From UHGV virus genome UHGV-1738898: a DNA stretch of 15,174 bases; one strand, given 5' to 3'. A model generated the notes under the pieces. The model worked only from the letters and a program-made list of their open reading frames with translations, did no database searches and was not told the origin of the DNA. The translations under genes were made by a program, and so were the position numbers. Source of the DNA: a virus. This document shows positions 1 to 15,174 of this stretch, piece after piece (the stretch's first letter is position 1; the number at the start of each line of letters is the position of its first letter).

Positions 1-111
1 CTGAGGCAGCACCTGGCACGGCTGGGACGGAAGTCGCTGTCGTTCTCAAAATCGGTGGAGCTGCATGACAAAGTCATCGGGCATTATCTGAACATAAAAC
101 ACTATCAATAA
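1..111 (+). other. 3' end of an ORF entering from upstream of the window (frame 1, stop TAA 109-111); possibly the displaced 5' part of the gpE-like capsid gene
   Basis: Frame 1 is open from position 1 to the TAA at 109-111 ([36 protein letters not shown]). It aligns weakly, in register, with lambda gpE residues about 29-50 (R..S..F...G). The downstream E-like ORF is in frame 3. Confidence 0.3.
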
Positions 112-170
112 GTTGGAGTCATTACCCACGAGATGAGGGATACGAATCAAAAACAATTCGTCCAGGTTAT

Positions 171-965
171 ATGAAGCCGAAAAGCAGCATTGATCCAAAT
201 AAGTTAGCTGTGCGCCCTGCTGGTGTGTCACCTGAGCAATACAATGCTTTTGGGGCGCGTAATATTAAAGTTAAACAGGCGATTGTAAATCAGGCTAAAG
301 CTATTCGTGCACGTATTGAATGGCTTGCTGTTCAGGCAATCACAACGGGGAAAAATATCATTGAGGGCGATGGTATTGAACGTTATGAGCTGGACTGGAA
401 TATAAAACCACAAAATATCATCACTCAGTCTGGCGGTACTGAGTGGTCAGGTAAGGATAAAGAAACTTTTGATCCAAATGATGATATTGAGAGCTACGCA
501 GAATTTAGTGAGGGCGTCACTAATATCATCATTATGGGTGGTAATGTATGGAAGAAATACCGTTCATTCAGAGCGATAAAAGAGGCTTTGGATACCCGTC
601 GTGGTTCTAATTCCGAACTGGAAACGGCCCTTAAAGACCTTGGTGATTCGGTGAGTTTTAAAGGGTATATGGGCGATGTTGCGATTGTTGTTTACAGCGG
701 GCGTTATACCGACGAGGACGGAACAGAAAAACATTTCCTTGATCCTGATTTGATGGTGCTTGGCAATACGGCTCTTCAGGGGATTGTCGCCTATGGCGGT
801 ATTCAGGATCCGGAGCTAATCCGAATGGGGCTGACTAAAGCCGAACTTGCACCGAAAAACTATATTGTGCCTGGTGATCCGGCTATTGAATATGTGCAGA
901 CACATTCAGCACCACAGCCAATACCGGCCCGCATCAATCGTTTTGTTACCGTTCGCATTGGCTAA
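171..965 (+). CDS. Major capsid protein homolog (lambda gpE family), divergent; 5'-incomplete or frameshifted copy covering the equivalent of gpE residues ~78-341
   Basis: The 264-aa ORF aligns along its whole length with the lambda E protein encoded at 6034-7059 in this window (shared blocks ITQSGGTEWS..KDK.T.DP.DDIE.YA, LDTRRGS.SELETA.KDLG, GDVAIVVYSG, MVLGNT, IQD). Similarity continues upstream of the ATG in the same frame (PGYMKPK vs lambda PGYVKPK) until an in-frame TGA at 66-68. No convincing Shine-Dalgarno precedes ATG 171. Confidence 0.65.
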   Translation: MKPKSSIDPNKLAVRPAGVSPEQYNAFGARNIKVKQAIVNQAKAIRARIEWLAVQAITTGKNIIEGDGIERYELDWNIKPQNIITQSGGTEWSGKDKETFDPNDDIESYAEFSEGVTNIIIMGGNVWKKYRSFRAIKEALDTRRGSNSELETALKDLGDSVSFKGYMGDVAIVVYSGRYTDEDGTEKHFLDPDLMVLGNTALQGIVAYGGIQDPELIRMGLTKAELAPKNYIVPGDPAIEYVQTHSAPQPIPARINRFVTVRIG

Positions 966-974
966 GGGGGAGCA

Positions 975-1316
975 ATGGCTACTCATTACACTGAACTCAT
1001 GGCTGGCACTGAAGCACTGGTGACTACGCTGGGGATATTTTCAGCTAATAAAGGGGTAATTCCTGCATTTACGCCACTGATGCAGGAAGATGCAACAGGT
1101 GCACTGGTGGTATGGGATGGTTCGAGCGTAGGTAAAGCGGTTTATGTTTCCGCTGTACAAATCGACACCGCGAAAAAAATACAGGCTCAGGTCTATAAGA
1201 CAGGTGTCTTAAATGTTGATGCTCTGAACTGGCCTGAGTCTGTTAAAGAACTGTCAGTAAAGGTTGCAGCGTTTGTTGGCTCAGGTATTTCTGTTCAGCC
1301 GCTGGCTCGTGTGTAA
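975..1316 (+). CDS. Head decoration protein homolog (lambda gpD family), divergent
   Basis: The 113-aa ORF has a strong RBS (GGGGGAG, 966-972). It aligns with lambda D encoded at 5647-5979 (THY near the N-terminus; PAFTPLMQEDATGALVVWDG vs [20 protein letters not shown]; VYKTG...WPE vs FYKSG...WPE; AF.G..IS near the C-terminus). Confidence 0.7.
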   Translation: MATHYTELMAGTEALVTTLGIFSANKGVIPAFTPLMQEDATGALVVWDGSSVGKAVYVSAVQIDTAKKIQAQVYKTGVLNVDALNWPESVKELSVKVAAFVGSGISVQPLARV

Positions 1317-1327
1317 AGGGGGATACA

Positions 1328-1711
1328 ATGCAGAATGATTACAATGACCTTAAGCCAATTGCCGAAATGATGTACCCGAATCCAGCTGTAGAGGAATTAA
1401 AAGCTATCGCTGACAAAATGTGTTTAAGCGAGCGCCTTGTTGATATGAATCAGGTGATGGAAATTACAACCCTGAGTCGTCGTACACTGCTAAACCTTGA
1501 GGCTAGTGGAGAGTTCCCGGAGCGTGTGCAGGTTACGGAAGGGCGTAAGGCCTGGTATTTAAGTGAAGTGATCGACTGGATAAATAATATTCCTCGCGCT
1601 TCTGAATATTGCCGCGTACCTGTCCCAAAAAAGCCAGATGCGGCGCTATGCCTCAAGATTGAGCGTGTACGCCGCAATGCACGGGATGGTCGCTATAAGC
1701 TGATTGGTTGA
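1328..1711 (+). CDS. AlpA/excisionase-family winged-HTH DNA-binding protein with N- and C-terminal extensions
   Basis: The 127-aa ORF has a strong RBS (AGGGGGA). Its central segment LVDMNQVMEITTLSRRTLLNLEASGEFPERVQVTEGRKAWYLSEVIDWI matches the AlpA family pattern (LSRxTIYxLxxxGxFPxPVxLGxRxVxWxxSEIxxWI). Confidence 0.7.
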   Translation: MQNDYNDLKPIAEMMYPNPAVEELKAIADKMCLSERLVDMNQVMEITTLSRRTLLNLEASGEFPERVQVTEGRKAWYLSEVIDWINNIPRASEYCRVPVPKKPDAALCLKIERVRRNARDGRYKLIG

Positions 1712-1736
1712 TGAAATTAGGGCCCGCTCTGGCTGG

Positions 1737-1801
1737 CGGGTCCTTTCCGGTGATCCGGTAGGCTACGGGGCGGCGACCTCGCGGGTTTTCGCTATTTATG
1801 A
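1737..1801. other. cos: Lambda-type cohesive-end site (cosQ/cosN region); the 12-nt cohesive-end sequence GGGCGGCGACCT lies at 1768-1779
   Basis: CGGGTCCTTTCCGGTGATCCG...TACGGGGCGGCGACCTCGCGGGTTTTCGCTATTTATGA matches my recollection of the lambda right-end/left-end junction (ACGGGTCCTTTCCGGTGATCCGACAGGTTACG | GGGCGGCGACCTCGCGGGTTTTCGCTATTTATGAAAATTTTCC). There are a few mismatches just left of cosN and complete divergence after ...TATTTATGA. It sits in the 200-bp gap between the AlpA-like gene and the Nu1-like gene, 134 bp upstream of the latter. Confidence 0.8.
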
Positions 1802-1912
1802 GCCTTTTTCGGGTGCTGGTGGTGGTTTTGTTGTTCGCTCTATCTCTATGAATAAAAAGGAAAAGATAAAGCCAATACACCAACCTGAAACATTACTTAA
1901 GTGGGGATATTG
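1802..1912. promoter_or_regulatory. Putative divergent cosB (small-terminase binding region) between cosN and the Nu1-like gene
   Basis: This is the position equivalent to lambda cosB (R3-I1-R2-R1), but the sequence is unrelated to the lambda R sites (CGTTTCC-type). It contains short repeats (GGTGGTGG, TTGTTGTT, CTCTATCTCTAT) and an A-rich tract. The call rests on position only. Confidence 0.3.
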
Positions 1913-2455
1913 ATGAAATCGCACCTGATGAACAAAAAAAACATGGCGCAAAGCTGCCGTGTAAGTGCGACAGCGTTCGACAAGTGGGGAGTGACTCCCG
2001 TTGAACGTAAAGGCCGCGAGGCGTTTTATGATGTTGCCAGCGTAATAGACAATCGGGTTAGCAATGCAATTAACCAGATTACAGACGACAAAGGCGAGAT
2101 TGATGATGATGAACTCCTACGAGTCAGGATCAGATTGCTGACAGCACAGGCAGAGGCGCAGGAGCTTAAAAACGAGCGCGAACGCGGCGACGTTATTGAT
2201 ACAGCGTTTTGTATATACGTGCTTTCAAAATTGGCGAGTCAGATTTCTTCAATCATGGACAGCCTGCCGCTTGCCATGACAAGGAAGTTTCCCGACATGA
2301 AGCCGTCTATGCTGGATGGACTGAAAAAAGAAGTTATCAGAGCCTGTAACGCATGCGCAAAACTTGACGAAAACATACCGCTGATGCTGTCCGATTATCT
2401 GATGGAAACTGCCGGAAACGTACCGGATAAGTTGCAGCCGAATAAAGATAAGTAA
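1913..2455 (+). CDS. Terminase small subunit, lambda Nu1 family; N-terminal DNA-binding domain divergent, C-terminal half conserved
   Basis: ATG 1913 is preceded by GGGGA (1903-1907); the ORF track shows an upstream GTG at 1901. The C-terminal region RLLTAQAEAQELKNERERGDVIDTAFCIYVLSKLASQISSIMDSLPLAMTRKFPD closely matches lambda Nu1 (RLTRAQADAQELKNARDSAEVVETAFCTFVLSRIAGEIASILDGLPLSVQRRFPE, from memory). The N-terminus is only loosely similar (NKK, YD.A.VI). Confidence 0.8.
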   Translation: MKSHLMNKKNMAQSCRVSATAFDKWGVTPVERKGREAFYDVASVIDNRVSNAINQITDDKGEIDDDELLRVRIRLLTAQAEAQELKNERERGDVIDTAFCIYVLSKLASQISSIMDSLPLAMTRKFPDMKPSMLDGLKKEVIRACNACAKLDENIPLMLSDYLMETAGNVPDKLQPNKDK

Positions 2456-2466
2456 CGTAGTACGCT

Positions 2467-2748
2467 ATGACTGAATCCGAAATACTGCGATTAATCCGCC
2501 GTGCTTGTGGAATCAGCAAGCAGCATGACGAACAGGCCACGCAGCCGGACAGCGTGACCGCAGATAATTATGTGCGTGTAGTGGCTGAGGTGATGCGCCG
2601 TGACGGTATTGAGCTTAACGGCGTGGATATGCGCAACATACGAACAAGAGTCCTTGAGTTGCTGGCATATCGTCGCCGTTCTCAACAACGGAGGGAGAGC
2701 GCGAAAAATACTTACCAGTGGAAGAAGCCGGAACGATTGCGGCGGTAA
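2467..2748 (+). CDS. Hypothetical 93-aa protein with an arginine/lysine-rich C-terminus; sits where the large-terminase gene A would start in lambda
   Basis: Intact ORF 12 bp after the Nu1-like stop, with a weak RBS. It has no recognisable similarity to the lambda gpA N-terminus or any family I can name. C-terminal tail RRRSQQRRESAKNTYQWKKPERLRR. Confidence 0.4.
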   Translation: MTESEILRLIRRACGISKQHDEQATQPDSVTADNYVRVVAEVMRRDGIELNGVDMRNIRTRVLELLAYRRRSQQRRESAKNTYQWKKPERLRR

Positions 2749-2763
2749 CTTGCTGATATTCCC

Positions 2764-2788
2764 GATAACGCAAAATTGCGCTGGCTGA
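2764..2788. repeat. 25-bp direct repeat, copy 1 (GATAACGCAAAATTGCGCTGGCTGA), containing an inverted repeat CGCAA-aa-TTGCG
   Basis: Matches 2950-2974 at 22 of 25 positions. A second small dyad TTGCA-t-TGCAA lies at 2793-2803. Confidence 0.6.
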
Positions 2789-2949
2789 CTTGTTGCATTG
2801 CAAAAAGTTAAGCAGGAAGGCACGGCCTGTAAGATGGGATGCAGTAAGTAGTTCAAGGCTACCTTGTGCTGGCACGCACAGTTAAGCCGTCGGTGCTGGA
2901 TATCCCCCACTGGGGGAAAAGCTGGCTACATCCCTCACATCTGAGGACT

Positions 2950-2974
2950 GATAACGCGACATTGCGCTGGCTGG
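2950..2974. repeat. 25-bp direct repeat, copy 2 (GATAACGCGACATTGCGCTGGCTGG)
   Basis: Matches 2764-2788 at 22 of 25 positions. It is followed at 2979-2992 by the inverted repeat GTGCAA-aa-TTGCAC. Confidence 0.6.
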
Positions 2975-2999
2975 CAAAGTGCAAAATTGCACGATGGCC

Positions 3000-3161
3000 T
3001 AACCCATTGATTATTTCGAAAACCTGCAATGCAGGAAATCGGGGAAGTAAGCCTAAGCTATTGATTGTTTCGAAAACCCCCATTGGGGGATGTCGGGAAA
3101 GTAAGACTAACCCATTGATTCTTCCACAATCCTCAATTTGAGGAGGCCGGAACGTCTACAT
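3000..3161. repeat. Three tandem ~54-bp units, each carrying a perfect 13-bp 6-1-6 dyad at the same phase (3023-3035 CCTGCAATGCAGG; 3077-3089 CCCCCATTGGGGG; 3131-3143 CCTCAATTTGAGG)
   Basis: Units 1 and 2 (3000-3053, 3054-3107) are about 78% identical by my count. Unit 3 starts with the same 13 nt (TAACCCATTGATT) and then degenerates, but keeps a perfect dyad exactly 54 bp after the previous one. Arm substitutions between dyads are mirrored so symmetry is preserved. A related dyad CCCCCACTGGGGG lies at 2904-2916. Confidence 0.7.
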
Positions 3162-3428
3162 AGCTGCATCGCCGTAATGATGATTCAGCCCACCAGCCAA
3201 ATCAGCACAGCAACGACAGAATAGCCCGACACAGAAAAACCACGAATATGGGGTTTTTGTTATGACATGGTCATGATGACCACTCATACAAAACAGGTAA
3301 AGCCCACCAGCCTGATTAAAGGTTAACCGGAAAAAAGCCAGGTATCCAATCTCGATATGGGGATCCCTATATCGACATTAACGCCCACTAAAACTGTGCA
3401 TATATGCATAGAAAAAGCATCCACCAGC

Positions 3429-3520
3429 TTTATGACGGATGCCGCTCATCTTATAAATAATCGTGTATTGCAGTGTGTATTGCGACTCCTTTAAACGATA
3501 GGTCTGAGCATTCGTAATGT
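3429..3520 (+). promoter_or_regulatory. AT-rich region with sigma70-like promoter candidates upstream of the truncated B fragment
   Basis: Candidate 1: TTTATG (3429-3434), 17-bp spacer, TATAAA (3452-3457). Candidate 2: TTAAAC (3491-3496), 18-bp spacer, TAATGT (3515-3520). Hexamer matching by eye only. Confidence 0.2.
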
Positions 3521-3563
3521 ACTGTTTTTAAATTTTATTTTTTCCTGTCTTTTCATAAAGGCG

Positions 3564-4337
3564 ATGTATGCCGCCACCATTGAAAGTGAGCTGGATACGC
3601 AGTCAGCGATGGATTTTATTCTGGGCGCGAACAGTCAGGAGCAGCGGGAAAGGCTGACGGGCTGGATTGGTGAAATTGCCGCGTATTACGCTGCAGCACC
3701 GGTCCGTCTGGGAGGCGCAAAAGTGCCGCACCTGATGCCGGGGGACTCACTGAACCTGCAGACGGCTCAGGACACGGATAACGGCTACTCCGTGTTTGAG
3801 CAGTCACTGTTGCGGTATATCGCTGCCGGGCTGGGTGTCTCGTATGAGCAGCTTTCCCGGAATTACGCCCAGATGAGCTACTCCACGGCACGGGCCAGTG
3901 CGAACGAGTCGTGGGCGTACTTTATGGGGCGGCGAAAATTCGTCGCATCCCGTCAGGCGAGCCAGATGTTTCTGTGCTGGCTGGAAGAGGCCATCGTTCG
4001 CCGCGTGGTGACGTTACCTTCAAAAGCGCGCTTCAGCTTTCAGGAAGCCCGCAGTGCCTGGGGGAACTGCGACTGGATAGGCTCCGGTCGTATGGCCATC
4101 GATGGTCTGAAAGAAGTTCAGGAAGCGGTGATGCTGATAGAAGCCGGACTGAGCACCTACGAGAAAGAGTGCGCGAAACGCGGTGACGACTATCAGGAAA
4201 TTTTTGCCCAGCAGGTCCGTGAAACGATGGAGCGCCGTGCAACCGGTCTTAAACCGCCCGCCTGGGCGGCTGCGGCATTTGAATCCGGACTGCGACAATC
4301 AACAGAGGAGGAGAAGAGTGACAGCAGAGCTGCGTAA
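3564..4337 (+). pseudogene. B: Portal protein gpB, 3' fragment only (C-terminal 257 codons, equivalent to lambda B residues ~277-533)
   Basis: The ORF (MYAATIESELDTQSAMDFILGANSQEQRERLTGWIGEIAAYYAAAP...AAAFESGLRQSTEEEKSDSRAA) matches the C-terminal half of lambda B as I recall it. An in-frame stop lies at 3492-3494. DNA upstream of ~3555 is AT-rich, non-coding and unlike lambda. The first approximately 276 codons of B are absent from the window. Confidence 0.85.
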
Positions 4338-5637
4338 TCTCCCGCATATTGCCAGCATGGCTTTTAATGAGCCGCTGATGCTTGAACCCGCCTATGCGCG
4401 GGTTTTCTTTTGTGCGCTTGCAGGCCAGCTTGGGATCAGCCGCCTGACGGATGCAGTATCCGGCGACAGCCTGACTGCCGGAGAGGCACCCGCGGCGCTG
4501 GCGTTATCCGGTGATGATGACGGACCACGACAGGCCCGCAGTTATCAGGTCATGAACGGCATCGCCGTGCTGCCGGTGTCCGGTACGCTGGTCAGCCGGA
4601 CGCGGGCGCTGCAGCCGTATTCGGGAATGACCGGTTACAACGGCATTATCGCCCGTCTGCAACAGGCTGCCAGCGATCCGATGGTGGACGGCATTCTGCT
4701 GGATATGGACACACCGGGCGGGATGGTGGCGGGAGCATTTGACTGTGCTGACATCATCGCCCGTGTGCGAGACATAAAACCGGTATGGGCGCTGGCCAAC
4801 GACATGAACTGCAGTGCAGGTCAGCTGCTTGCCAGCGCCGCCTCCCGGCGTCTGGTCACGCAGACCGCCCGGACAGGCTCCATCGGCGTCATGATGGCTC
4901 ACAGTAATTACGGTGCTGCGCTGGAGAAACAGGGCGTGGAAATCACGCTGATTTACAGCGGCAGCCATAAGGTGGATGGCAACCCCTACAGCCATCTACC
5001 GGATGATGTCCGGGAAACACTGCAGTCCCGGATGGATGCAACCCGCCGGATGTTTGCACAGAAGGTGTCGGCATATACCGGCCTGTCCGTGCAGGCTGTG
5101 CTGGATACCGAGGCTGCAGTGTACAGCGGTCAGGAGGCCATTGATGCCGGACTGGCTGATGAACTTGTGAACAGTACCGATGCGATCACCGTCATGCGTG
5201 ATGCACTGGATGCACGTAAATCCCGTCTCTCAGGAGGGCGAATGACCAAAGAGACTCAATCAACAACTGTTTCAGCCACTGCTTCGCAGGCTGACGTTAC
5301 TGGCGTGGTGCAAGCGACGGAGGGCGAGAACGCCAGCGCTGCGCAGCCGGACGTGAACGCGCAGATCACCGCAGCGGTTGCGGCAGAAAACAGTCGCATT
5401 ATGGGGATCCTCAACTGTGAGGAGGCTCACGGACGCGAAGAACAGGCATGCGTGCTGGCCGAAACCCCCGGTATGACCGTGGAAACGGCCCGCCGTATTC
5501 TGGCCGCAGCACCACAGAGTGCACAGGCGCGCAGTGACACTGCGCTGGATCGTCTGATGCAGGGGGCACCGGCACCGCTGGCTGCAGGTAACCCGGCATC
5601 TGATGCCGTTAACGATTTGCTGAACACACCAGTGTAA
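4318..5637 (+). CDS. C: Head protease / minor capsid protein gpC (S49 ClpP-like peptidase family), GTG start
   Basis: The translation from GTG 4318 (VTAELRNLPHIASMAFNEPLMLEPAYARVFF...) matches lambda C over its 439 aa. The start overlaps the B stop by 20 bp, as in lambda. The ORF-track start at 4183 is an in-frame upstream extension inside B. Confidence 0.9.
   Translation: MTAELRNLPHIASMAFNEPLMLEPAYARVFFCALAGQLGISRLTDAVSGDSLTAGEAPAALALSGDDDGPRQARSYQVMNGIAVLPVSGTLVSRTRALQPYSGMTGYNGIIARLQQAASDPMVDGILLDMDTPGGMVAGAFDCADIIARVRDIKPVWALANDMNCSAGQLLASAASRRLVTQTARTGSIGVMMAHSNYGAALEKQGVEITLIYSGSHKVDGNPYSHLPDDVRETLQSRMDATRRMFAQKVSAYTGLSVQAVLDTEAAVYSGQEAIDAGLADELVNSTDAITVMRDALDARKSRLSGGRMTKETQSTTVSATASQADVTGVVQATEGENASAAQPDVNAQITAAVAAENSRIMGILNCEEAHGREEQACVLAETPGMTVETARRILAAAPQSAQARSDTALDRLMQGAPAPLAAGNPASDAVNDLLNTPV
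5032..5637 (+). CDS. nu3: Scaffolding protein Nu3, in-frame internal start within C
   Basis: In-frame ATG at 5032 (MDATRRMFAQKV...) at the position corresponding to lambda Nu3, sharing the stop of C. Called from established lambda gene structure. Confidence 0.7.
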   Translation: MDATRRMFAQKVSAYTGLSVQAVLDTEAAVYSGQEAIDAGLADELVNSTDAITVMRDALDARKSRLSGGRMTKETQSTTVSATASQADVTGVVQATEGENASAAQPDVNAQITAAVAAENSRIMGILNCEEAHGREEQACVLAETPGMTVETARRILAAAPQSAQARSDTALDRLMQGAPAPLAAGNPASDAVNDLLNTPV

Positions 5638-5646
5638 GGGATGTTT

Positions 5647-5979
5647 ATGACGAGCAAAGAAACCTTTACCCATTACCAGCCGCTGGGCAACAGTGACCCG
5701 GCTCATACCGCAACCGCGCCCGGCGGATTGAGTGCGAAAGCGCCTGCAATGACCCCGCTGATGCTGGACACCTCCACCCGTAAGCTGGTTGCGTGGGATG
5801 GCACCACCGACGGTGCTGCCGTTGGCATTCTTGCAGTTGCTGCTGACCAGACCAGCACCACACTGACGTTCTACAAGTCCGGCACGTTCCGTTATGAGGA
5901 TGTGCTCTGGCCGGAGGCTGCCAGCGACGAGACGAAAAAACGGACCGCGTTTGCCGGAACGGCAATCAGCATCGTTTAA
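5647..5979 (+). CDS. D: Head decoration protein gpD
   Basis: [42 protein letters not shown]...FAGTAISIV matches lambda D (110 aa). The ORF-track start at 5641 adds two upstream in-frame codons. Confidence 0.9.
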
Positions 5980-6000
5980 CTTTACCCTTCATCACTAAAG

Positions 6001-6020
6001 GCCGCCTGTGCGGCTTTTTT
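6001..6020 (+). terminator. GC stem-loop followed by a T-run in the D-E intergenic region (terminator-like hairpin)
   Basis: GCCGC (6001-6005), loop CTGT, GCGGC (6010-6014), then TTTTTT (6015-6020). The stem is short, so it may act as an RNA stability or processing element rather than an efficient terminator. Confidence 0.3.
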
Positions 6021-6033
6021 ACGGGATTTTTTT

Positions 6034-7059
6034 ATGTCGATGTACACAACCGCCCAGCTGCTGGCGGCAAATGAGCAGAAATTTAAGTTTGATCCGCTGT
6101 TTCTGCGTCTCTTTTTCCGTGAGAGCTATCCCTTCACTACGGAGAAAGTCTATCTCTCACAAATTCCGGGACTGGTAAACATGGCGCTGTACGTTTCGCC
6201 GATTGTTTCCGGTGAGGTTATCCGTTCCCGTGGCGGCTCCACCTCTGAATTTACGCCGGGATATGTCAAACCCAAGCATGAAGTGAATCCGCAGATGACC
6301 CTGCGTCGCCTGCCGGATGAAGATCCGCAGAATCTGGCGGACCCGGCTTACCGCCGCCGTCGCATCATCATGCAGAACATGCGTGACGAAGAGCTGGCCA
6401 TTGCTCAGGTCGAAGAGATGCAGGCAGTTTCTGCCGTGCTCAAGGGCAAATACACCATGACCGGTGAAGCCTTCGATCCGGTTGAGGTGGATATGGGCCG
6501 CAGTGCGGCGAACAACATCACGCAGTCCGGCGGCACGGAGTGGAGCAAGCGTGACAAGTCCACGTATGACCCGACCGACGATATCGAAGCCTACGCGCTG
6601 AACGCCAGCGGCGTGGTGAATATCATCGTGTTTGACCCGAAAGGCTGGGCGCTGTTCCGTTCCTTCAAAGCCGTCAGGGAGAAGCTGGATACCCGTCGCG
6701 GCTCTCATTCCGAACTGGAGACAGCGGTAAAAGACCTGGGCAAAGCGGTGTCTTATAAGGGAATGTATGGCGATGTGGCCATCGTCGTGTATTCCGGACA
6801 GTACGTGGAAAACGGTGTCAAAAAGAACTTCCTGCCGGACAACACGATGGTGCTGGGTAACACTCATGCACGCGGTCTGCGCACCTATGGCTGTATTCAG
6901 GATGCGGATGCATTGAGTGAGGGTATTAATGCGTCTCCCCGTTATCCGAAAAACTGGAAGACATCCGGCGATCCGGCGCGAGAGTTCACCATGATTCAGT
7001 CAGCACCGCTGATGCTGCTGGCTGATCCTGATGAGTTCGTGTCCGTTCAACTGGCGTAA
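6034..7059 (+). CDS. E: Major capsid protein gpE
   Basis: The 341-aa ORF beginning MSMYTTAQLLAANEQKFKFDPLFLRLFFRESYPFTTEKVYLSQIPGLVNMALYVSPIVSGEVIRSRGG... matches lambda E essentially end to end. Confidence 0.95.
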   Translation: MSMYTTAQLLAANEQKFKFDPLFLRLFFRESYPFTTEKVYLSQIPGLVNMALYVSPIVSGEVIRSRGGSTSEFTPGYVKPKHEVNPQMTLRRLPDEDPQNLADPAYRRRRIIMQNMRDEELAIAQVEEMQAVSAVLKGKYTMTGEAFDPVEVDMGRSAANNITQSGGTEWSKRDKSTYDPTDDIEAYALNASGVVNIIVFDPKGWALFRSFKAVREKLDTRRGSHSELETAVKDLGKAVSYKGMYGDVAIVVYSGQYVENGVKKNFLPDNTMVLGNTHARGLRTYGCIQDADALSEGINASPRYPKNWKTSGDPAREFTMIQSAPLMLLADPDEFVSVQLA

Positions 7060-7061
7060 TC

Positions 7062-7085
7062 ATGGCCCTTAGGGGCCATTTTCTC
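7062..7085 (+). terminator. Stem-loop plus T/C-rich tail in the E-FI intergenic region
   Basis: ATGGCCC (7062-7068), loop TTAG, GGGCCAT (7073-7079), followed by TTTTCT. Structure only; function unverified. Confidence 0.25.
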
Positions 7086-7100
7086 TCTGTGGAGGAGTCC

Positions 7101-7496
7101 ATGACGAAAGATGAACTGATTGCCCGTCTCCGGTCGCTGGGTGAGCAACTGAACCGTGATGTCAGCCTGACGGGGACGAAAGAAGAACTGGCGCTCCGTG
7201 TGGCAGAGCTGGAAGAGGAGCTTGATGACAAGGATGACGCAGCCGGTCAGGACACGTCTGTCAGCCCGGAAAATGCGCTGACCGGACATGAAAATGAGGT
7301 GGTATCAGCACAGACGGATACCGTGACTGATACGGCTGTTCTGGTCACGGTTGTGGCACTGGTGACGCTGCATACCGATGCACTTCACGCCACGCGGGAT
7401 GAGGCTGTGGCATTTGTGCTGCCGGGAACGGCGTTCCGTGTCTCTGCCGGTGTGGCAGCCGAAATGACAGAACGTGGCCTGGCCAGAATGCAATAA
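7101..7496 (+). CDS. FI: DNA-packaging / head assembly protein gpFI
   Basis: ATG 7101 is preceded by GGAGGAG. MTKDELIARLRSLGEQLNRDVSLTGTKEELALRVAEL... and ...HTDALHATRDEAVAFVLPGTAFRVSAGVAAEMTERGLARMQ match lambda FI. The central linker differs from what I recall of lambda. Confidence 0.9.
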   Translation: MTKDELIARLRSLGEQLNRDVSLTGTKEELALRVAELEEELDDKDDAAGQDTSVSPENALTGHENEVVSAQTDTVTDTAVLVTVVALVTLHTDALHATRDEAVAFVLPGTAFRVSAGVAAEMTERGLARMQ

Positions 7497-7507
7497 CGGG
7501 AGGCGCT

Positions 7508-7861
7508 GTGGCTGATTTCGATAACCTGTTCGATGCTGCCATTGCCCGCGCTGATGAAACGATACGCGGGTACATGGGAACGTCAGCCACCATGACATCC
7601 GGTGAGCAGTCCGGTGCTGTGATACGTGGTGTTTTTGATGACCCTGAAAATATCAGCTATGCCGGACAGGGCGTGCGCGTTGAAGGCTCCAGCCCGTCCC
7701 TGTTTGTCCGGACTGATGATGTGCGGCAGCTGCGGCGCGGCGACACGCTGACCATCGGTGAGGAAAACTTCTGGATAGACCGGATTTCGCCGGATGATGG
7801 CGGAAGCTGTCATCTCTGGCTTGGGCGGGGCGTACCGCCTGCCGTTAACCGTCGCCGCTGA
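7508..7861 (+). CDS. FII: Head-tail joining protein gpFII (GTG start)
   Basis: MADFDNLFDAAIARADETIRGYMGTSATMTSGEQSGAVIRGVFDDPENISYAGQGVRVEG... matches lambda FII (117 aa). Confidence 0.9.
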   Translation: MADFDNLFDAAIARADETIRGYMGTSATMTSGEQSGAVIRGVFDDPENISYAGQGVRVEGSSPSLFVRTDDVRQLRRGDTLTIGEENFWIDRISPDDGGSCHLWLGRGVPPAVNRRR

Positions 7862-7872
7862 AAGGGGGATGT

Positions 7873-8451
7873 ATGGCCATAAAAGGTCTTGAGCAGGCCA
7901 TTGAAAACCTCAGCCGTATCAGCAAAACGGCGGTGCCTGGTGCCGCCGCAATGGCCATTAACCGCGTTGCTTCATCCGCGATATCGCAGTCGGCGTCACA
8001 GGTTGCCCGTGAGACAAAGGTACGCCGGAAACTGGTAAAGGAAAGGGCCAGGCTGAAAAGGGCCACGGTCAAAAATCCGCAGGCCAGAATCAAAGTTAAC
8101 CGGGGGGATTTGCCCGTAATCAAGCTGGGTAATGCGCGGGTTGTCCTTTCGCGCCGCAGGCGTCGTAAAAAGGGGCAGCGTTCATCCCTGAAAGGTGGCG
8201 GCAGCGTGCTTGTGGTGGGTAACCGTCGTATTCCCGGCGCGTTTATTCAGCAACTGAAAAATGGCCGGTGGCATGTCATGCAGCGTGTGGCCGGGAAAAA
8301 CCGTTACCCCATTGATGTGGTGAAAATCCCGATGGCGGTGCCGCTGACCACGGCGTTTAAACAAAATATTGAGCGGATACGGCGTGAACGTCTTCCGAAA
8401 GAGCTGGGCTATGCGCTGCAGCATCAACTGAGGATGGTAATAAAGCGATGA
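7873..8451 (+). CDS. Z: Tail completion protein gpZ
   Basis: The 192-aa ORF MAIKGLEQAIENLSRISKTAVPGAAAMAINRVASSAISQ... matches lambda Z. Its stop overlaps the U start (ATGA). Confidence 0.9.
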   Translation: MAIKGLEQAIENLSRISKTAVPGAAAMAINRVASSAISQSASQVARETKVRRKLVKERARLKRATVKNPQARIKVNRGDLPVIKLGNARVVLSRRRRRKKGQRSSLKGGGSVLVVGNRRIPGAFIQQLKNGRWHVMQRVAGKNRYPIDVVKIPMAVPLTTAFKQNIERIRRERLPKELGYALQHQLRMVIKR

Positions 8452-8843
8452 AACATACTGAACTCCGTGCAGCCATACTGGATGCACTGGAGAAGCATGA
8501 CACCGGGGCGACGTTTTTTGATGGTCGCCCCGCTGTTTTTGATGAGGCGGATTTTCCGGCAGTTGCCGTTTATCTCACCGGCGCTGAATACACGGGCGAA
8601 GAGCTGGACAGCGATACCTGGCAGGCGGAGCTGCATATCGAAGTTTTCCTGCCTGCTCAGGTGCCGGATTCAGAGCTGGATGCGTGGATGGAGTCCCGGA
8701 TTTATCCGGTGATGAGCGATATCCCGGCACTGTCAGATTTGATCACCAGTATGGTGGCCAGCGGCTATGACTACCGGCGCGACGATGATGCGGGCCTGTG
8801 GAGTTCAGCCGATCTGACTTATGTCATTACCTATGAAATGTGA
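8448..8843 (+). CDS. U: Tail tube terminator protein gpU
   Basis: The 131-aa [55 protein letters not shown]... matches lambda U. Confidence 0.9.
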
Positions 8844-8850
8844 GGACGCT

Positions 8851-9591
8851 ATGCCTGTACCAAATCCTACAATGCCGGTGAAAGGTGCCGGGACCACCCT
8901 GTGGGTTTATAAGGGGAGCGGTGACCCTTATGCGAATCCGCTTTCAGACGTTGACTGGTCGCGTCTGGCAAAAGTTAAAGACCTGACGCCCGGCGAACTG
9001 ACCGCTGAGTCCTATGACGACAGCTATCTCGATGATGAAGATGCAGACTGGACTGCGACCGGGCAGGGGCAGAAATCTGCCGGAGATACCAGCTTCACGC
9101 TGGCGTGGATGCCCGGAGAGCAGGGGCAGCAGGCGCTGCTGGCGTGGTTTAATGAAGGCGATACCCGTGCCTATAAAATCCGCTTCCCGAACGGCACGGT
9201 CGATGTGTTCCGTGGCTGGGTCAGCAGTATCGGTAAGGCGGTGACGGCGAAGGAAGTGATCACCCGCACGGTGAAAGTCACCAATGTGGGACGTCCGTCG
9301 ATGGCAGAAGATCGCAGCACGGTAACAGCGGCAACCGGCATGACCGTGACGCCTGCCAGCACCTCGGTGGTGAAAGGGCAGAGCACCACGCTGACCGTGG
9401 CCTTCCAGCCGGAGGGCGTAACCGACAAGAGCTTTCGTGCGGTGTCTGCGGATAAAACAAAAGCCACCGTGTCGGTCAGTGGTATGACCATCACCGTGAA
9501 CGGCGTTGCTGCAGGCAAGGTCAACATTCCGGTTGTATCCGGTAATGGTGAGTTTGCTGCGGTTGCAGAAATTACCGTCACCGCCAGTTAA
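8851..9591 (+). CDS. V: Major tail tube protein gpV (with C-terminal Ig-like domain)
   Basis: From ATG 8851 the translation [36 protein letters not shown]... matches lambda V (246 aa). The ORF-track start at 8821 is an upstream in-frame extension overlapping the end of U. Confidence 0.9.
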
Positions 9592-9606
9592 TCCGGAGAG
9601 TCAGCG

Positions 9607-10029
9607 ATGTTCCTGAAAACCGAATCATTTGAACATAACGGTGTGACCGTCACGCTTTCTGAACTGTCAGCCCTGCAGCGCATTGAGCATCTCGCCCTGA
9701 TGAAACGGCAGGCAGAACAGGCGGAGTCAGACAGCAACCGGAAGTTTACTGTGGAAGACGCCATCAGAACCGGCGCGTTTCTGGTGGCGATGTCCCTGTG
9801 GCATAACCATCCGCAGAAGACGCAGATGCCGTCCATGAATGAAGCCGTTAAACAGATTGAGCAGGAAGTGCTTACCACCTGGCCCACGGAGGCAATTTCT
9901 CATGCTGAAAACGTGGTGTACCGGCTGTCTGGTATGTATGAGTTTGTGGTGAATAATGCCCCTGAACAGACAGAGGACGCCGGGCCCGCAGAGCCTGTTT
10001 CTGCGGGAAAGTGTTCGACGGTGAGCTGA
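9607..10029 (+). CDS. G: Tail assembly chaperone gpG
   Basis: The 140-aa ORF MFLKTESFEHNGVTVTLSELSALQRIEHLALMKRQAEQAESDSNRKFTVEDAIRTGAFLV... matches lambda G. Confidence 0.9.
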   Translation: MFLKTESFEHNGVTVTLSELSALQRIEHLALMKRQAEQAESDSNRKFTVEDAIRTGAFLVAMSLWHNHPQKTQMPSMNEAVKQIEQEVLTTWPTEAISHAENVVYRLSGMYEFVVNNAPEQTEDAGPAEPVSAGKCSTVS

Positions 10030-10445
10030 GTTTTGCCCTGAAACTGGCGCGTGAGATGGGGCGACCCGACTGGCGTGCCATGCTTGCCGGGATGTCATCC
10101 ACGGAGTATGCCGACTGGCACCGCTTTTACAGTACCCATTATTTTCATGATGTTCTGCTGGATATGCACTTTTCCGGGCTGACGTACACCGTGCTCAGCC
10201 TGTTTTTCAGCGATCCGGATATGCATCCGCTGGATTTCAGTCTGCTGAACCGGCGCGAGGCTGACGAAGAGCCTGAAGATGATGTGCTGATGCAGAAAGC
10301 GGCAGGGCTTGCCGGAGGTGTCCGCTTTGGCCCGGACGGGAATGAAGTTATCCCCGCTTCCCCGGATGTGGCGGACATGACGGAGGATGACGTAATGCTG
10401 ATGACAGTATCAGAAGGGATCGCAGGAGGAGTCCGGTATGGCTGA
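9607..10445 (+). CDS. T: Tail assembly chaperone fusion gpG-T, made by programmed -1 ribosomal frameshift at 10005-10011
   Basis: The slippery heptamer G GGA AAG sits at 10005-10011 in the G frame. The -1 frame continues as VFDGELSFALKLAREMGRPDWRAMLAGMSSTEYADWHRFYSTHYF... to the TGA at 10443-10445, matching the lambda T portion. Confidence 0.8.
10005..10011 (+). promoter_or_regulatory. Programmed -1 frameshift slippery site (GGGAAAG) for G/G-T
   Basis: Heptamer in the X XXY YYZ configuration relative to the G frame, near the end of G, with the T ORF open in the -1 frame. Confidence 0.8.
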
Positions 10446-12999
10446 ACCGGTAGGCGATCTGGTCGTTGATTTAAGTCTGGATGCGGCCAGATTTGACGAG
10501 CAGATGGCCAGAGTCAGGCGTCATTTTTCCGGTACGGAAAGTGATGCGAAAAAAACAGCGGCAGTCGTTGAACAGTCGCTGAGCCGACAGGCGCTGGCTG
10601 CACAGAAAGCGGGGATTTCCGTCGGGCAGTATAAAGCCGCCATGCGTATGCTGCCTGCACAGTTCACCGACGTGGCCACGCAGCTTGCAGGCGGGCAAAG
10701 TCCGTGGCTGATCCTGCTGCAACAGGGGGGGCAGGTGAAGGACTCCTTCGGCGGGATGATCCCCATGTTCAGGGGGCTTGCCGGTGCGATCACCCTGCCG
10801 ATGGTGGGGGCCACCTCGCTGGCGGTGGCGACCGGTGCGCTGGCGTATGCCTGGTATCAGGGCAACTCAACCCTGTCCGATTTCAACAAAACGCTGGTCC
10901 TTTCCGGCAATCAGGCGGGACTGACGGCAGATCGTATGCTGGTCCTGTCCAGAGCCGGGCAGGCGGCAGGGCTGATGTTTAACCAGACCAGCGAGTCACT
11001 CAGCGCACTGGTTAAGGCGGGGGTAAGCGGTGAGGCTCAGATTGCGTCCATCAGCCAGAGTGTGGCTCGTTTCTCCTCTGCATCCGGCGTGGAGGTGGAC
11101 AAGGTCGCTGAAGCCTTCGGGAAGCTGACCACAGACCCGACGTCGGGGCTGACGGCGATGGCACGCCAGTTCCATAACGTGACGGCGGAGCAGATTGCGT
11201 ATGTTGCTCAGTTGCAGCGTTCCGGCGATGAAGCCGGGGCATTGCAGGCGGCGAACGAGGCCGCAACGAAAGGGTTTGATGACCAGACCCGCCGCCTGAA
11301 AGAGAACATGGGCACGCTGGAGACCTGGGCAGACAGGACTGCGCGGGCCTTCAAATCCATGTGGGATGCGGTGCTGGATATTGGTCGTCCTGATACCGCG
11401 CAGGAGATGCTGATTAAGGCAGAGGCTGCGTTTAAGAAAGCAGACGACATCTGGAATCTGCGCAAGGATGATTATTTTGTTAACGATGAAGCGCGGGCGC
11501 GTTACTGGGATGATCGTGAAAAGGCCCGTCTTGCGCTTGAAGCCGCCCGAAAGAAGGCTGAGCAGCAGACTCAACAGGACAAAAATGCGCAGCAGCAGAG
11601 CGATACCGAAGCGTCACGGCTGAAATATACCGAAGAGGCGCAGAAGGCTTACAAACGGCTGCAGACGCCGCTGGAGAAATATACCGCCCGTCAGGAAGAA
11701 CTGAACAAGGCACTGAAAGACGGGAAAATCCTGCAGGCGGATTACAACACGCTGATGGCGGCGGCGAAAAAGGATTATGAAGCGACGCTGAAAAAGCCGA
11801 AACAGTCCGGCGTGAAGGTGTCTGCGGGCGATCGTCAGGAAGACAGTGCTCATGCTGCCCTGCTGACGCTTCAGGCAGAACTCCGGACGCTGGAGAAGCA
11901 TGCCGGAGCGAATGAGAAAATCAGCCAGCAGCGCCGGGATTTGTGGAAGGCAGAAAGTCAGTTCGCGGTACTGGAGGAGGCGGCACAACGTCGCCAGCTG
12001 TCCGCACAGGAGAAATCCCTGCTGGCGCATAAAGATGAGACGCTGGAGTACAAACGCCAGCTGGCTGCACTTGGCGACAAGGTTACGTATCAGGAGCGCC
12101 TGAACGCGCTGGCGCAGCAGGCGGATAAATTCGCACAGCAGCAACGGGCAAAACGGGCCGCCATTGATGCGAAAAGCCGGGGGCTGACTGACCGGCAGGC
12201 AGAACGGGAAGCCACGGAACAGCGCCTGAAGGAACAGTATGGCGATAATCCGCTGGCGCTGAATAACGTCATGTCAGAGCAGAAAAAGACCTGGGCGGCT
12301 AAAGACCAGCTTCGCGGGAGCTGGATGGCAGGCCTGAAGTCCGGCTGGAGTGAGTGGGAAGAGAGCGCCACGGACAGTATGTCGCAGGTAAAAAGTGCAG
12401 CCACGCAGACCTTTGATGGTATTGCACAGAATATGGCAGCGATGCTGACCGGCAGTGAGCAGAACTGGCGCAGCTTCACCCGTTCCGTGCTGTCCATGAT
12501 GACAGAAATTCTGCTTAAGCAGGCAATGGTGGGGATTGTCGGGAGTATCGGCAGCGCCATTGGCGGGGCTGTTGGTGGCGGCGCATCCGCGTCAGGCGGT
12601 ACAGCCATTCAGGCCGCTGCGGCGAAATTCCATTTTGCAACCGGAGGATTCACAGGAACCGGCGGTAAATATGAGCCAGCGGGGATTGTTCATCGTGGTG
12701 AATTTGTCTTCACGAAGGAGGCAACCAGCCGGATTGGCGTGGGGAATCTTTACCGGCTGATGCGCGGCTATGCCACCGGCGGTTATGTCGGTACACCGGG
12801 CAGCATGGCAGACAGCCGGTCGCAGGCGTCCGGGACGTTTGAGCAGAATAACCATGTGGTGATTAACAACGACGGCACGAACGGGCAGATAGGTCCGGCT
12901 GCTCTGAAGGCAGTGTATGACATGGCCCGCAAGGGTGCCCGTGATGAAATCCAGGCACAGATGCGCGATGGTGGTCTGTTCTCCGGAGGTGGACGATGA
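10438..12999 (+). CDS. H: Tail tape measure protein gpH
   Basis: The 853-aa ORF MAEPVGDLVVDLSLDAARFDEQMARVRRHFSGTESDAKKTAAVVEQ... matches lambda H in length and sequence. Its start overlaps the end of T. Confidence 0.95.
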   Translation: MAEPVGDLVVDLSLDAARFDEQMARVRRHFSGTESDAKKTAAVVEQSLSRQALAAQKAGISVGQYKAAMRMLPAQFTDVATQLAGGQSPWLILLQQGGQVKDSFGGMIPMFRGLAGAITLPMVGATSLAVATGALAYAWYQGNSTLSDFNKTLVLSGNQAGLTADRMLVLSRAGQAAGLMFNQTSESLSALVKAGVSGEAQIASISQSVARFSSASGVEVDKVAEAFGKLTTDPTSGLTAMARQFHNVTAEQIAYVAQLQRSGDEAGALQAANEAATKGFDDQTRRLKENMGTLETWADRTARAFKSMWDAVLDIGRPDTAQEMLIKAEAAFKKADDIWNLRKDDYFVNDEARARYWDDREKARLALEAARKKAEQQTQQDKNAQQQSDTEASRLKYTEEAQKAYKRLQTPLEKYTARQEELNKALKDGKILQADYNTLMAAAKKDYEATLKKPKQSGVKVSAGDRQEDSAHAALLTLQAELRTLEKHAGANEKISQQRRDLWKAESQFAVLEEAAQRRQLSAQEKSLLAHKDETLEYKRQLAALGDKVTYQERLNALAQQADKFAQQQRAKRAAIDAKSRGLTDRQAEREATEQRLKEQYGDNPLALNNVMSEQKKTWAAKDQLRGSWMAGLKSGWSEWEESATDSMSQVKSAATQTFDGIAQNMAAMLTGSEQNWRSFTRSVLSMMTEILLKQAMVGIVGSIGSAIGGAVGGGASASGGTAIQAAAAKFHFATGGFTGTGGKYEPAGIVHRGEFVFTKEATSRIGVGNLYRLMRGYATGGYVGTPGSMADSRSQASGTFEQNNHVVINNDGTNGQIGPAALKAVYDMARKGARDEIQAQMRDGGLFSGGGR

Positions 13000-13325
13000 A
13001 AACCTTCCGCTGGAAAGTGAAACCCGGGATGGATGTGACATCGGCTCCTTCCGTCAGGGAGGTGCGCTTTGGTGATGGCTATTCCCAGCGTGCGCCTGCC
13101 GGGCTGAACGCTGACCTGAAAACGTACAGCGTGACGCTGTCTGTCTCCCGTGAGGAGGCCACGGCGCTGGAGTCGTTTCTGGCTGAGCACGGGGGCTGGA
13201 AGGCCTTTTTGTGGACGCCGCCTTATGGTTACAGGCAGATAAAGGTGACCTGCGCAAAATGGTCGTCGCAGGTCAGTATGTTGCGTGTTGAGTTCAGCGC
13301 AGAGTTTAAACAGGTGGTGAACTGA
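12996..13325 (+). CDS. M: Tail tip protein gpM
   Basis: The 109-aa ORF MKTFRWKVKPGMDVTSAPSVREVRFGDGYSQRAPAGLNADLKTYSVTLSV... matches lambda M. ATGA overlap with the H stop. Confidence 0.9.
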   Translation: MKTFRWKVKPGMDVTSAPSVREVRFGDGYSQRAPAGLNADLKTYSVTLSVSREEATALESFLAEHGGWKAFLWTPPYGYRQIKVTCAKWSSQVSMLRVEFSAEFKQVVN

Positions 13326-14023: not shown

Positions 14024-14028
14024 ATCCC

Positions 14029-14772: not shown

Positions 14773-15174
14773 AAACGGGGGCCGAAGCCATCCGGGCGCT
14801 GGCCACGCAGCTTCCGTCGTTTCGCCAGAAACTGAATGAGGGCTGGTATCAGGTGCGCATTGCCGGGCGTGATGCAGGCGAAAATGAATTATCAGCCCGT
14901 CTTAATGAACCGCTGGCAAATGGTGCTGTGATCCATATCGTGCCGCGTCTGGCAGGAGCCAAAAGTGGCGGTGTGTTTCAGGCTGTGCTGGGGGCGGCTG
15001 TTATGGCGGTTGCTATATGGATGCCGGGGGTAGGAATTATGGCGAGTAATCTGCTGTTTTCTCTCGGTGCCAGTATGGTGCTCGGTGGTGTGGCGCAGAT
15101 GCTGGCACCGAAAGCCAGAACTCCCCGCACACAGACAACGGATAACGGCAAACAGAACACCTATTTTTCTTCAC
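14670..15174 (+). CDS. I: Tail tip assembly protein gpI, 5' portion (runs past the window end)
   Basis: The ATG at 14670 opens a frame with no stop before the window end. MAATHTLPLASPGMARICLYGDLQRFGRRIDLRVKTGAEAIRALATQLP... matches lambda I. It overlaps the 3' end of K in another frame, as in lambda. Confidence 0.85.
   Translation, partial: MAATHTLPLASPGMARICLYGDLQRFGRRIDLRVKTGAEAIRALATQLPSFRQKLNEGWYQVRIAGRDAGENELSARLNEPLANGAVIHIVPRLAGAKSGGVFQAVLGAAVMAVAIWMPGVGIMASNLLFSLGASMVLGGVAQMLAPKARTPRTQTTDNGKQNTYFSS

Follow-up and report, generated by a model that had tools for sequence, protein, structure and literature searches.

A satellite tail in a lambdoid prophage as a candidate array of Rha/Roi-type operator modules with IHF sites

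The window analyzed here, a stretch of 15,174 nucleotides from the viral genome UHGV-1738898, is the right end of a helper-embedded phage-inducible chromosomal island (PICI), a satellite lying within the portal gene of a lambdoid prophage. Between its last gene, orf93, and the attR site runs a non-coding tail of ~810 bp (0.8 kb), which contains a 24-mer present twice and three tandem units of 54 bp. Our combined findings suggest that this tail may be an array of operator sites for Rha/Roi-family regulators, of several specificities and accompanied by sites for integration host factor (IHF), that would be bound in trans by regulators of the helper. We put the probability of this reading, which is drawn from sequence comparison, at about 0.45. 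The repeated modules are homologous to a segment within helper rha/roi genes, which points to Rha/Roi-family proteins and IHF as the candidate binders rather than to proteins of the island.

The 24-mer, GATAACGCRAMATTGCGCTGGCTG, occurs at 2764-2787 and 2950-2973 (coordinates are on the plus strand of the window unless stated otherwise), with 22 of 24 positions identical and an offset of 186 bp. An earlier note on this DNA had reported a 25-bp direct repeat; the two copies and their places were confirmed, and the length is 24 bp, the 25th base differing between the copies (A versus G). The three inverted repeats reported with them are also real, namely CGCAAAATTGCG at 2769-2780, TTGCATTGCAA at 2793-2803 and GTGCAAAATTGCAC at 2979-2992, and further perfect palindromes stand between these: CAAGGCTACCTTG at 2854-2866, TCCCCCACTGGGGGA at 2903-2917 and CCTCACATCTGAGG at 2933-2946. 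The density of palindromes and repeats in this region exceeds chance. When perfect palindromes with arms of at least 5 and a centre of at most 4 were counted, the region held 6 per 234 bp, against 1.0 ± 1.0 in dinucleotide shuffles (6 was reached in 1 of 500), and the whole tail (2746-3560) held 12, against 3.8 ± 1.8 in shuffles. No third copy of the 24-mer was found on either strand of the window with up to 3 mismatches, the shuffle expectation being 0.00.

Copy 1 of the 24-mer is the 3′ half of a composite unit of ~45-54 bp, made up of an IHF-like site, a spacer of 11-12 bp, a variable palindrome and a flank. Its consensus on the plus strand is TAAC-N3-YTGAT-W, a spacer ending in CGRWAAC, the palindrome, and a flank of G..GYCGG or GCTGGCTG; the palindrome has arms of 5-8 bp around an A/T-rich centre, is variable in sequence and is centred 29-30 nt from the TAA. 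The first complete unit, module 0 (2746-2790), begins on the stop codon of orf93, the TAA of which forms its first three bases. It comprises the IHF-like site TAACTTGCTGATA at 2746-2758 (reverse complement TATCAGCAAGTTA, with one mismatch against the IHF consensus WATCAANNNNTTR), the spacer TTCCCGATAA, the palindrome CGCAAAATTGCG and the flank CTGGCTG. The three 54-bp units lie in tandem at 2997-3158, with the palindromes CCTGCAATGCAGG at 3023-3035, CCCCCATTGGGGG at 3077-3089 and TCCTCAATTTGAGGA at 3130-3144, and each contains the IHF consensus, exact as the reverse complement, at 3000-3012, 3054-3066 and 3108-3120. These three exact matches to YAANNNNTTGATW within 160 bp compare with 0.39 expected per 15 kb. 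Since copy 1 is half of module 0 and the 54-bp units are the same type of module, what had been described as a second repeat family is a diverged branch of a single one.

Each of the 54-bp units is homologous to a different allele of the phage gene roi, the plus strand of the island corresponding to roi antisense over a matched segment of 40-53 nt. In BLAST searches unit 3 matched roi of phi330, Lahn2, JLK-2012 and Stx1 phages (92-96% identity, E 1e-13), unit 2 matched roi of VT2-Sakai, HK629 and Stx2-II (90.6%, E 7e-11), and unit 1 matched roi of CP-1639 (87.8%, E 3e-3). In the phage genes the module is present once per rha or roi gene, in the opposite orientation, inside a hypervariable cassette that encodes a winged helix (examples of such genes lie at 4656-5378 of L029, in L030-L109 and at 39575-40180 of L230). 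The Roi protein shows a weak Phage_pRha match together with a KilAC/ANT domain, and a comparison of Roi alleles (HK022, two E. coli prophages, 80 viral contigs) shows near-identity outside codons ~22-65, which encode the recognition helix and the wing. The array copies, allele by allele, the rha/roi segment in which the DNA-binding determinants and a probable operator coincide.

Every roi allele cassette has a palindrome of its own (CTGCATTGCAG, CCCCCAATGGTGG or CCTCAAATTGAGG) 9-13 nt upstream of AATCAATNNNTTA. In HK022 roi, CTGCATTGCAG stands 13 nt from AATCAATGATTTA, and CCTGCATTGCAGG of unit 1 in the window has the same geometry. HK022 Roi reportedly binds within its own gene beside an IHF site, and IHF is said to stabilise the complex. 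In the allele translations the recognition helix varies along with the palindrome, V/I-S occurring with CTGCA, Q-S with CCCCA and R-T with CTCAA; given the physical linkage of helix and palindrome, this correlation is no more than suggestive. The palindrome CCCCCATTGGGGG of the island is a better one than its counterpart CCACCATTGGGGG in the phage allele.

The relationship extends to rha. At the equivalent place P22 rha, the founding member of the family, carries CGCATTTTTGCG and AATCAATAACTTA, the former being close to CGCAAAATTGCG and an exact match to the core of a unit that other islands carry. Three loci encoding Rha homologues that are 31-38% identical to P22 Rha (L238, L242 and L276) carry AACGCAAAATTGCGTT, a palindrome of the same type as that of the 24-mer module, in the expected orientation and ~150 nt from the 5′ boundary of the region that tblastn aligned to P22 Rha. 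AACGCAAAATTGCGTT is a close variant of the 24-mer module palindrome and takes its place in islands of the L009 type. By our own alignment the 24-mer module and the P22 rha module are ~70% identical, a weaker relationship than that of the 54-bp units. Rha-family proteins block phage growth in the absence of IHF, and IHF regulates rha (PMC4936722); passages of the same source credit IHF-dependent rha genes of P22 and phi80 to Henthorn & Friedman 1995, and Roi is a DNA-binding protein (PMC4587872). The palindrome and IHF consensus within the hypervariable winged helix-turn-helix (wHTH) cassette, a neglected feature of the Rha family, fit this old genetic link between Rha/Roi toxicity and IHF.

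Regulators of this family would have to come from outside the satellite. None of 63 island loci, at least 16 of which span int to orf93, encodes the Rha/Roi N-terminal domain. In the mechanism that we propose, the tail would capture Rha/Roi proteins of several helper specificities, assembled with IHF, and this capture would serve either to sense the helper or to titrate its regulator. Copy 1 would be the conserved first module that overlaps the orf93 stop, and copy 2 a partial module that recombination placed 186 bp downstream in this lineage.

A related unit lies in the helper prophage of L001, a 41-kb annotated relative of the window. At 5347-5397 on its minus strand, outside the window, the palindrome AACGCAGTTTTGCGTT and an exact IHF consensus directly follow the stop codon of a KilA-N gene. 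The half-sites of this unit (AACGCA-N4-TGCGTT) are those of the palindrome type of the 24-mer module, and the same association, antisense to the gene, was seen in 56 viral contigs. Searched as a possible remnant of rha, the unit adjacent to KilA-N gave no significant similarity. The composite motif occurs in L001 four times in the tail, always on the plus strand, once after this KilA-N gene and once more, probably by chance. In the window itself, a 74-aa open reading frame on the minus strand (2859-3083) spans units 1-2 together with copy 2, its frame being the one equivalent to roi. It is probably an artefact of the in-frame 54-nt units; unit spacings in other islands (42, 46, 48 and 116 nt) are not consistently multiples of three.

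The palindromes of the modules appear to be under selection for their symmetry. Our own register-aware pair count covered 33 distinct modules: each arm column shows complementarity in 27-31 of them, through 3-6 Watson-Crick pair types, and the complementary cells total 165, compared with 87 ± 7.8 when partners were shuffled (maximum of 120 among 2000 shuffles). This covariation indicates that palindromic symmetry is selected while the sequence varies. RNAalifold gave no consensus structure for the 33 modules because the palindrome centres differ by half a base. The proposal in the earlier note of a protein-binding regulatory region following packaging and structural genes is, in view of this covariation, a reasonable one: the region is non-coding and dense in operator-like palindromes that are under selection. 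The part of the proposal that names the binders fared worse, as described below.

The same evidence bears on whether the tail is merely functionless debris, that is, captured rha/roi fragments and recombination scars in a tolerant non-coding region. The tail is indeed a patchwork: some insertions are confined to particular lineages, and alternative continuations meet at short stretches of shared sequence. Its length varies from ~375 to 1200 bp, and copy 2 resembles a junction product. However, the palindromes are kept or even perfected despite sequence divergence, only the 45-54-bp module is ever present and never the neighbouring roi sequence, the IHF-like site has a fixed orientation and spacing, and module 0 stands at the same position in islands with different integrases. 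We therefore consider debris quite improbable.

Several observations weigh against an array of operators for Rha/Roi and IHF. Homology to roi runs through the spacer (90-96% over 50-53 nt), beyond what a binding site needs. In the phage genes the IHF consensus in AATCAATNNNTTA overlaps the codons for the conserved I-N-x-L-G motif and is possibly a by-product of coding. The palindrome class CAGCCAACGGCTG had no phage counterpart in our search, and the resident genome has no roi allele matching the three 54-bp units, for which there is one matching place in the record. Copy 2 lacks the IHF-like 5′ half, ACATCCCTCACATCTGAGGACT standing there instead, and the IHF-like site of copy 1 has one mismatch (ATCAG). 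In a palindrome-first search an IHF-like motif stood at exactly -21 to -24 in 25 of 101 distinct tail palindromes, leaving ~75 of the 101 with no such flank and no explanation. Finally, the island modules of all tails share one orientation, which an antisense model requires and a model of DNA sites does not.

The main rival is an antisense RNA array, in which the tail modules would be transcribed with the 3′ end of the late operon, or by read-through from helper late transcription, and would pair with the wHTH-coding part of rha/roi mRNA and lower the synthesis of Rha/Roi. We regard this as on the whole unlikely. For all three 54-nt units the plus strand of the island is roi antisense, at 88-96% identity over 40-53 nt including the spacer, and the uniformly oriented modules are co-directional with orf93. 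Between orf93 and the first modules there is no terminator-like site, the sole plus-strand match in the tail being a weak, 6-pair one at 2992-3009, just before the 54-nt units. Precedents for antisense control exist among genes of the antirepressor type, sar being annotated in P22 and C4/isrK elements lying upstream of ant in L003. However, no phage rha segment found exceeds ~70% identity to module 0 or the 24-mers, which is too low for an extended duplex, and the compensatory changes that keep the palindromes in islands (AGCGCA..TGCGCT versus AGCTCA..TGAGCT) would be unnecessary for pairing in trans. Among imperfect arms there was no bias of G-U over A-C, although cases were few. Promoter scans revealed no promoter of the array's own in the tail and no antisense promoter inside roi or rha.

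Searches for known RNAs point the same way. Rfam models, including C4, isrK and c4-a1b1, gave no match at gathering score in the window and only chance-level hits (E > 5) in 2600-3650; across six related loci their sole match was the known isrK/C4 of a Stx phage, which lies upstream of ant. No tRNA or tmRNA was found. A repeat RNA resembling those of type III toxin-antitoxin systems was dropped because no toxin gene follows and because the units are homologous to roi. Should the array act at the RNA level, it would target several helper regulators by antisense pairing, an equally unusual arrangement.

The position and the folding of the tail invite another explanation, a cluster of hairpins at the end of an operon that resembles REP/BIME (repetitive extragenic palindrome/bacterial interspersed mosaic element) sequences of the RIB/RIP type. 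Such a cluster might protect the 3′ end of mRNA, act as a barrier to transcription or supercoiling before attP/int, or organise the nucleoid, with no allele-specific binders. RIB/RIP elements are a known class, reportedly with an IHF site that has palindromes on either side and a position at the 3′ ends of transcription units. Module 0 opens on the stop codon that closes the last gene, the helper copy comes right after the KilA-N stop, and palindromes of many kinds crowd the tail at an unusual density. Each of the two strands folds better than its shuffles (z of -4.1 and -3.6), so that folding energy does not discriminate between readings. Yet hairpins alone would not account for the derivation of every unit from its own allele of a single phage gene segment, nor for the location of the phage module inside a coding region and in the opposite orientation, and the array has no REP similarity and is confined to a single locus rather than dispersed. 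We find this explanation rather improbable.

The tail is not a dispersed genomic repeat either. The earlier note had allowed that the 24-mer might prove to be a genome-wide repeat of the REP or ERIC (enterobacterial repetitive intergenic consensus) kind, and this is not the case. Of 5426 complete E. coli genomes, 1236 contain sequence related to it, typically at a single place (the median) and at no more than 6 in any genome, and all copies with an examined neighbourhood lie inside satellite tails. The REP consensus has no match in the window at up to 3 mismatches. REP, BIME and ERIC identities were rejected on these grounds, there being about one place per genome and all 44 of 44 island-type copies following orf93.

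We gathered relatives of the island through contigs encoding related proteins and through pattern scans of viral contigs (a contig scan with orf93 alone gave one locus). Related islands occur at yejO, phoQ, clpS, mdtJI and the helper terminase gene, each with terS or rpp, orf93 and a long non-coding tail, and their tails, ~375 to 1200 bp long, are mosaics of the recurring unit. A module of the module 0 type sits at the orf93 stop in islands of at least 5 different integration sites. In a pattern scan independent of orf93, this gene lay upstream of the 24-mer module in 44 of 44 island-type matches. The conserved feature is thus this first unit.

The pairing of the 24-mers, by contrast, is not conserved. 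Of 69 loci with the 23-mer core, 54 have a single copy, which is always the 3′ half of the unit at the orf93 stop. The other 15 have two copies, all with the flanks seen in the window, GACTTGTTGCATTGCAA after copy 1 and ACATCCCTCACATCTGAGGACT before copy 2. Single copies are followed by one of three continuations: GGTGGGTGAGTTGCAGATCTGCAA; ACATCCCTCACATCTGAGGACTG, which in the window precedes copy 2; or GGCARAGTGCAAAWTTGCAC, which in the window follows copy 2. In view of the shared flanks of the two-copy loci and these alternative continuations, the simplest explanation of the direct repeat is that alternative tails recombined at the 24-mer they have in common, rather than that it is a conserved spaced pair, and copy 2 looks like a lineage-specific recombination mosaic.

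The sequence between the copies has a similarly patchy distribution. A 140-bp segment (2788-2927), which holds TTGCATTGCAA, CAAGGCTACCTTG and a truncated module around TCCCCCACTGGGGGA, is present in a minority of islands and in 86 of 5426 genomes, 54 of them at ≥95% and 31 at ~77-78% identity. It is absent from L005 and L006, where GCGCTGGCT continues directly into ACATCCC. Behind a different first unit, an island at the clpS site has a homologue of 2788-2974, copy 2 included, that is 78% identical. ACATCCCTCACATCTGAGGACT (2928-2949), with the palindrome CCTCACATCTGAGG, stands immediately after copy 1 in other islands; it always precedes copy 2, which itself contains the imperfect palindrome CGCGACATTGCG at 2955-2966 with one G-T position. 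The next palindrome, GTGCAAAATTGCAC, shares the 10-mer GCAAAATTGC with copy 1; it is a 24-bp perfect palindrome in L005 and directly follows the single-copy 24-mer in L004, L110, L116, L123, L139 and L162.

This distribution also bears on whether the palindromes are operators for helix-turn-helix (HTH) proteins encoded nearby, as the earlier note had proposed, whether the 127-aa AlpA-like protein, orf93 or the TerS-like protein. These genes adjoin the region, the palindromes are operator-like and module 0 is always linked to orf93. Nonetheless, across related islands there is no co-occurrence of the 24-mer with an AlpA-like gene: the 24-mer persists in islands that lack the 127-aa gene or encode, in its place, an unrelated 137-aa protein or a ClpP-capsid fusion, and AlpA was rejected as its binder. 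For orf93, identical proteins (P0118) are followed by different first palindromes (AGCGCA..TGCGCT, AGCTCA..TGAGCT and AGCTCA..TGCGCT). Orf93 has no Pfam or PDB relative, no recognisable DNA-binding domain and no TerL similarity, and its AlphaFold model is poor (pLDDT 63) and unfit for a fold search. Moreover, one protein cannot recognise the many palindrome classes of a single tail. Operators for island proteins are thus very unlikely.

The setting of the tail follows from comparison with L001, which is 97% identical over the window and 100% identical over 2400-3600; the latter region is nearly full-length in 49 complete E. coli genomes, several at 100% identity, which places the window in the E. 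coli chromosome. In L001 the portal gene of a lambdoid prophage is interrupted by a 10.9-kb island (10273-21171). The island encodes, in order, a tyrosine integrase, AlpA, a Bro-N protein, an Icd-like protein, DUF4222, a primase and a single-stranded DNA-binding protein (SSB), followed by a lambda-E-like capsid protein, a D-like decoration protein, a second AlpA-family protein, a Nu1-like small terminase and orf93 (93 aa). The window holds the right part of the island (1-3570) and, from 3558 to 15174, the prophage with its remaining head and tail genes. The integrase and AlpA, Bro zone, primase, late zone, co-oriented insertion in a late gene of the helper and duplicated core correspond to a helper-embedded PICI, a configuration set out in passages of Tommasini, Mageeney & Williams 2023 (PMC10111431).

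At the right end of the island, orf93 (2467-2748; PHROG 1561, function unknown) is the last gene of the satellite late operon. The small terminase before it (1901-2455) resembles lambda Nu1 in the C-terminal part of the latter alone (Pfam profile positions 80-162), whereas the first 69 residues of the satellite protein are unrelated. It occupies exactly the slot taken by a 144-aa Rpp in other islands and has the appearance of a TerS chimera with a DNA-binding head of a new kind. Beyond the modules, a tail block at 3187-3433, of which 3262-3380 is part, is conserved in islands at other integration sites. Its elements are TGGTCATGATGACCA (3268-3282), a 32-bp near-palindrome AATCTCGATATGGGGA/TCCCTATATCGACATT at 3348-3379, AGCCCACCAGCC at 3187 and 3301, and CCACCAGC again at 3421. 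On the minus strand at 3416-3443, between this block and the arm sites described next, lies a leftward terminator-like hairpin of 11 pairs followed by TTTTTCT, with no evident minus-strand gene to its right. The tails of L004, L005, L008 and L019 (for example L019 ~3180-3225) contain four iteron-like GTGAC repeats at 10-12-bp spacing (CGTGACGGAGAGTGACAACCAGTGACACACCGTGAC), which are absent from the window.

Two probable integrase arm-type sites, GTGTATTGCA and GTGTATTGCG, lie at 3463-3484, their function being assigned from position only. The repeat GTGTATTGCR is found in the window here alone, with three more copies upstream of int at the opposite end of the island, and is most simply read as a set of integrase arm-type sites. 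The palindromic repeats themselves were rejected as arm sites, given this restriction of GTGTATTGCR to 3463-3484 and the presence of the TTGCATTGCAA segment in a clpS-site island with different arm repeats. Portal-gene homology resumes at 3558, within a 13-bp core common to both portal halves (attL AAGGCGATTTATG; attR AAGGCGATGTATG at 3558-3570). Elsewhere in the L001 prophage, an ompC-like porin gene (1812-2894) occupies a moron position between the Q antiterminator and the lysis genes.

A role of the tail in packaging or replication is extremely implausible. The combination of IHF with repeated sites recalls the architecture of lambda cosB, and the region does follow terS. However, the satellite has its own cos site (cosQ/cosN), a 66-bp stretch at 1736-1801 that is 94-95% identical to that of the helper and contains the cosN GGGCGGCGACCT (1768-1779) upstream of the Nu1-like terS, as in the cos-rpp/terS layout of such islands (PMC9026076). 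The repeat region is consequently not the packaging site. It is not a lambda-type cosB either, since it lies 1 kb from cosN, beyond terS and orf93, instead of within ~200 bp to the right of cosN, and cosN-cosB spacing is critical. As for replication, at least 8 TCTACC/GGTAGA iterons in both orientations follow the primase gene of L001 (16298-16527) and form the probable origin of the island; the ori of a PICI has been mapped functionally at this post-primase position (PMC6092414). Origins of the PICI/P4 kind have identical short iterons that flank an AT-rich stretch beside the primase (pri-rep) gene. Iterons and R sites repeat one sequence, which the palindromes of the tail do not.

A more specific version of the proposal, in which the tail is a multi-allele collection of operator cassettes from the rha/roi specificity region through which one PICI could recognise the Rha/Roi of many helpers and be triggered by them or neutralise them, is doubtful. 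If it held, the tail would be a cis-acting device for detecting or decoying the helper that grows and diversifies by module shuffling. Such a device would be a candidate answer to the question of which helper cue Gram-negative PICIs read, the helper-encoded activator of these satellites being still unidentified (PMC6092414). It would also add a new satellite-helper interface, cis-element mimicry of an operator internal to a helper gene, beside the protein-protein interfaces Rpp-TerS, Sid and Cox/Delta. An array of operator modules derived from a helper gene in a PICI tail is apparently undescribed, although composite sites for a regulator and IHF are known as such.

Compared with known systems, the island resembles the helper-embedded PICIs of PMC10111431 in its tyrosine integrase and AlpA, Bro zone, primase/SSB, late zone with captured lambda-like head genes and co-orientation in a late gene of the helper; a search of the text of that source for repeats, hairpins, noncoding and intergenic regions, and of its section on gene content, gave no description of a non-coding tail or of modules. 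Lambda cosB (R3-I1-R2-R1) likewise combines an IHF site with repeated protein-binding sites near the small-terminase gene, but the array is 1 kb downstream of cosN and not adjacent to it, and its palindromes are not repeats of one R sequence. RIB/RIP elements (BIME-1), in which REP palindromes flank an IHF site at the 3′ ends of E. coli transcription units, share with the array the occurrence of palindromes and an IHF consensus immediately after the last gene of an operon. They differ in that the array lacks REP similarity, occupies one locus as opposed to hundreds per genome and has variable instead of fixed palindromes. The datA locus of E. coli, with DnaA boxes and an IHF site, is a titration or decoy cluster and offers the same concept, a cluster of regulator sites with IHF that changes the amount of free regulator; there is no sequence relation, and the array has sites of several specificities and a function that is only proposed. 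As with P22 sar, P1/P7 c4, P4 CI and Rfam C4/isrK, the array is complementary to mRNA of the antirepressor family (roi KilAC/ANT), but in contrast to the C4, isrK and c4-a1b1 antisense RNAs it matches no model, covers multiple alleles and has no promoter or terminator of its own; the use of RNA regulators by P4-like and PICI satellites is documented in passages of PMC10111431. The closest likeness is to HK022 roi and P22 rha, with homologous sequences, the geometry of CTGCATTGCAG and AATCAATGATTTA matching unit 1 of the window, and CGCATTTTTGCG of P22 close to CGCAAAATTGCG. These genes have one copy of the module within their coding sequence, whereas the window has a tandem series of 4 complete copies and several partial ones, which differ in specificity, in non-coding DNA of an island that encodes no Rha/Roi.

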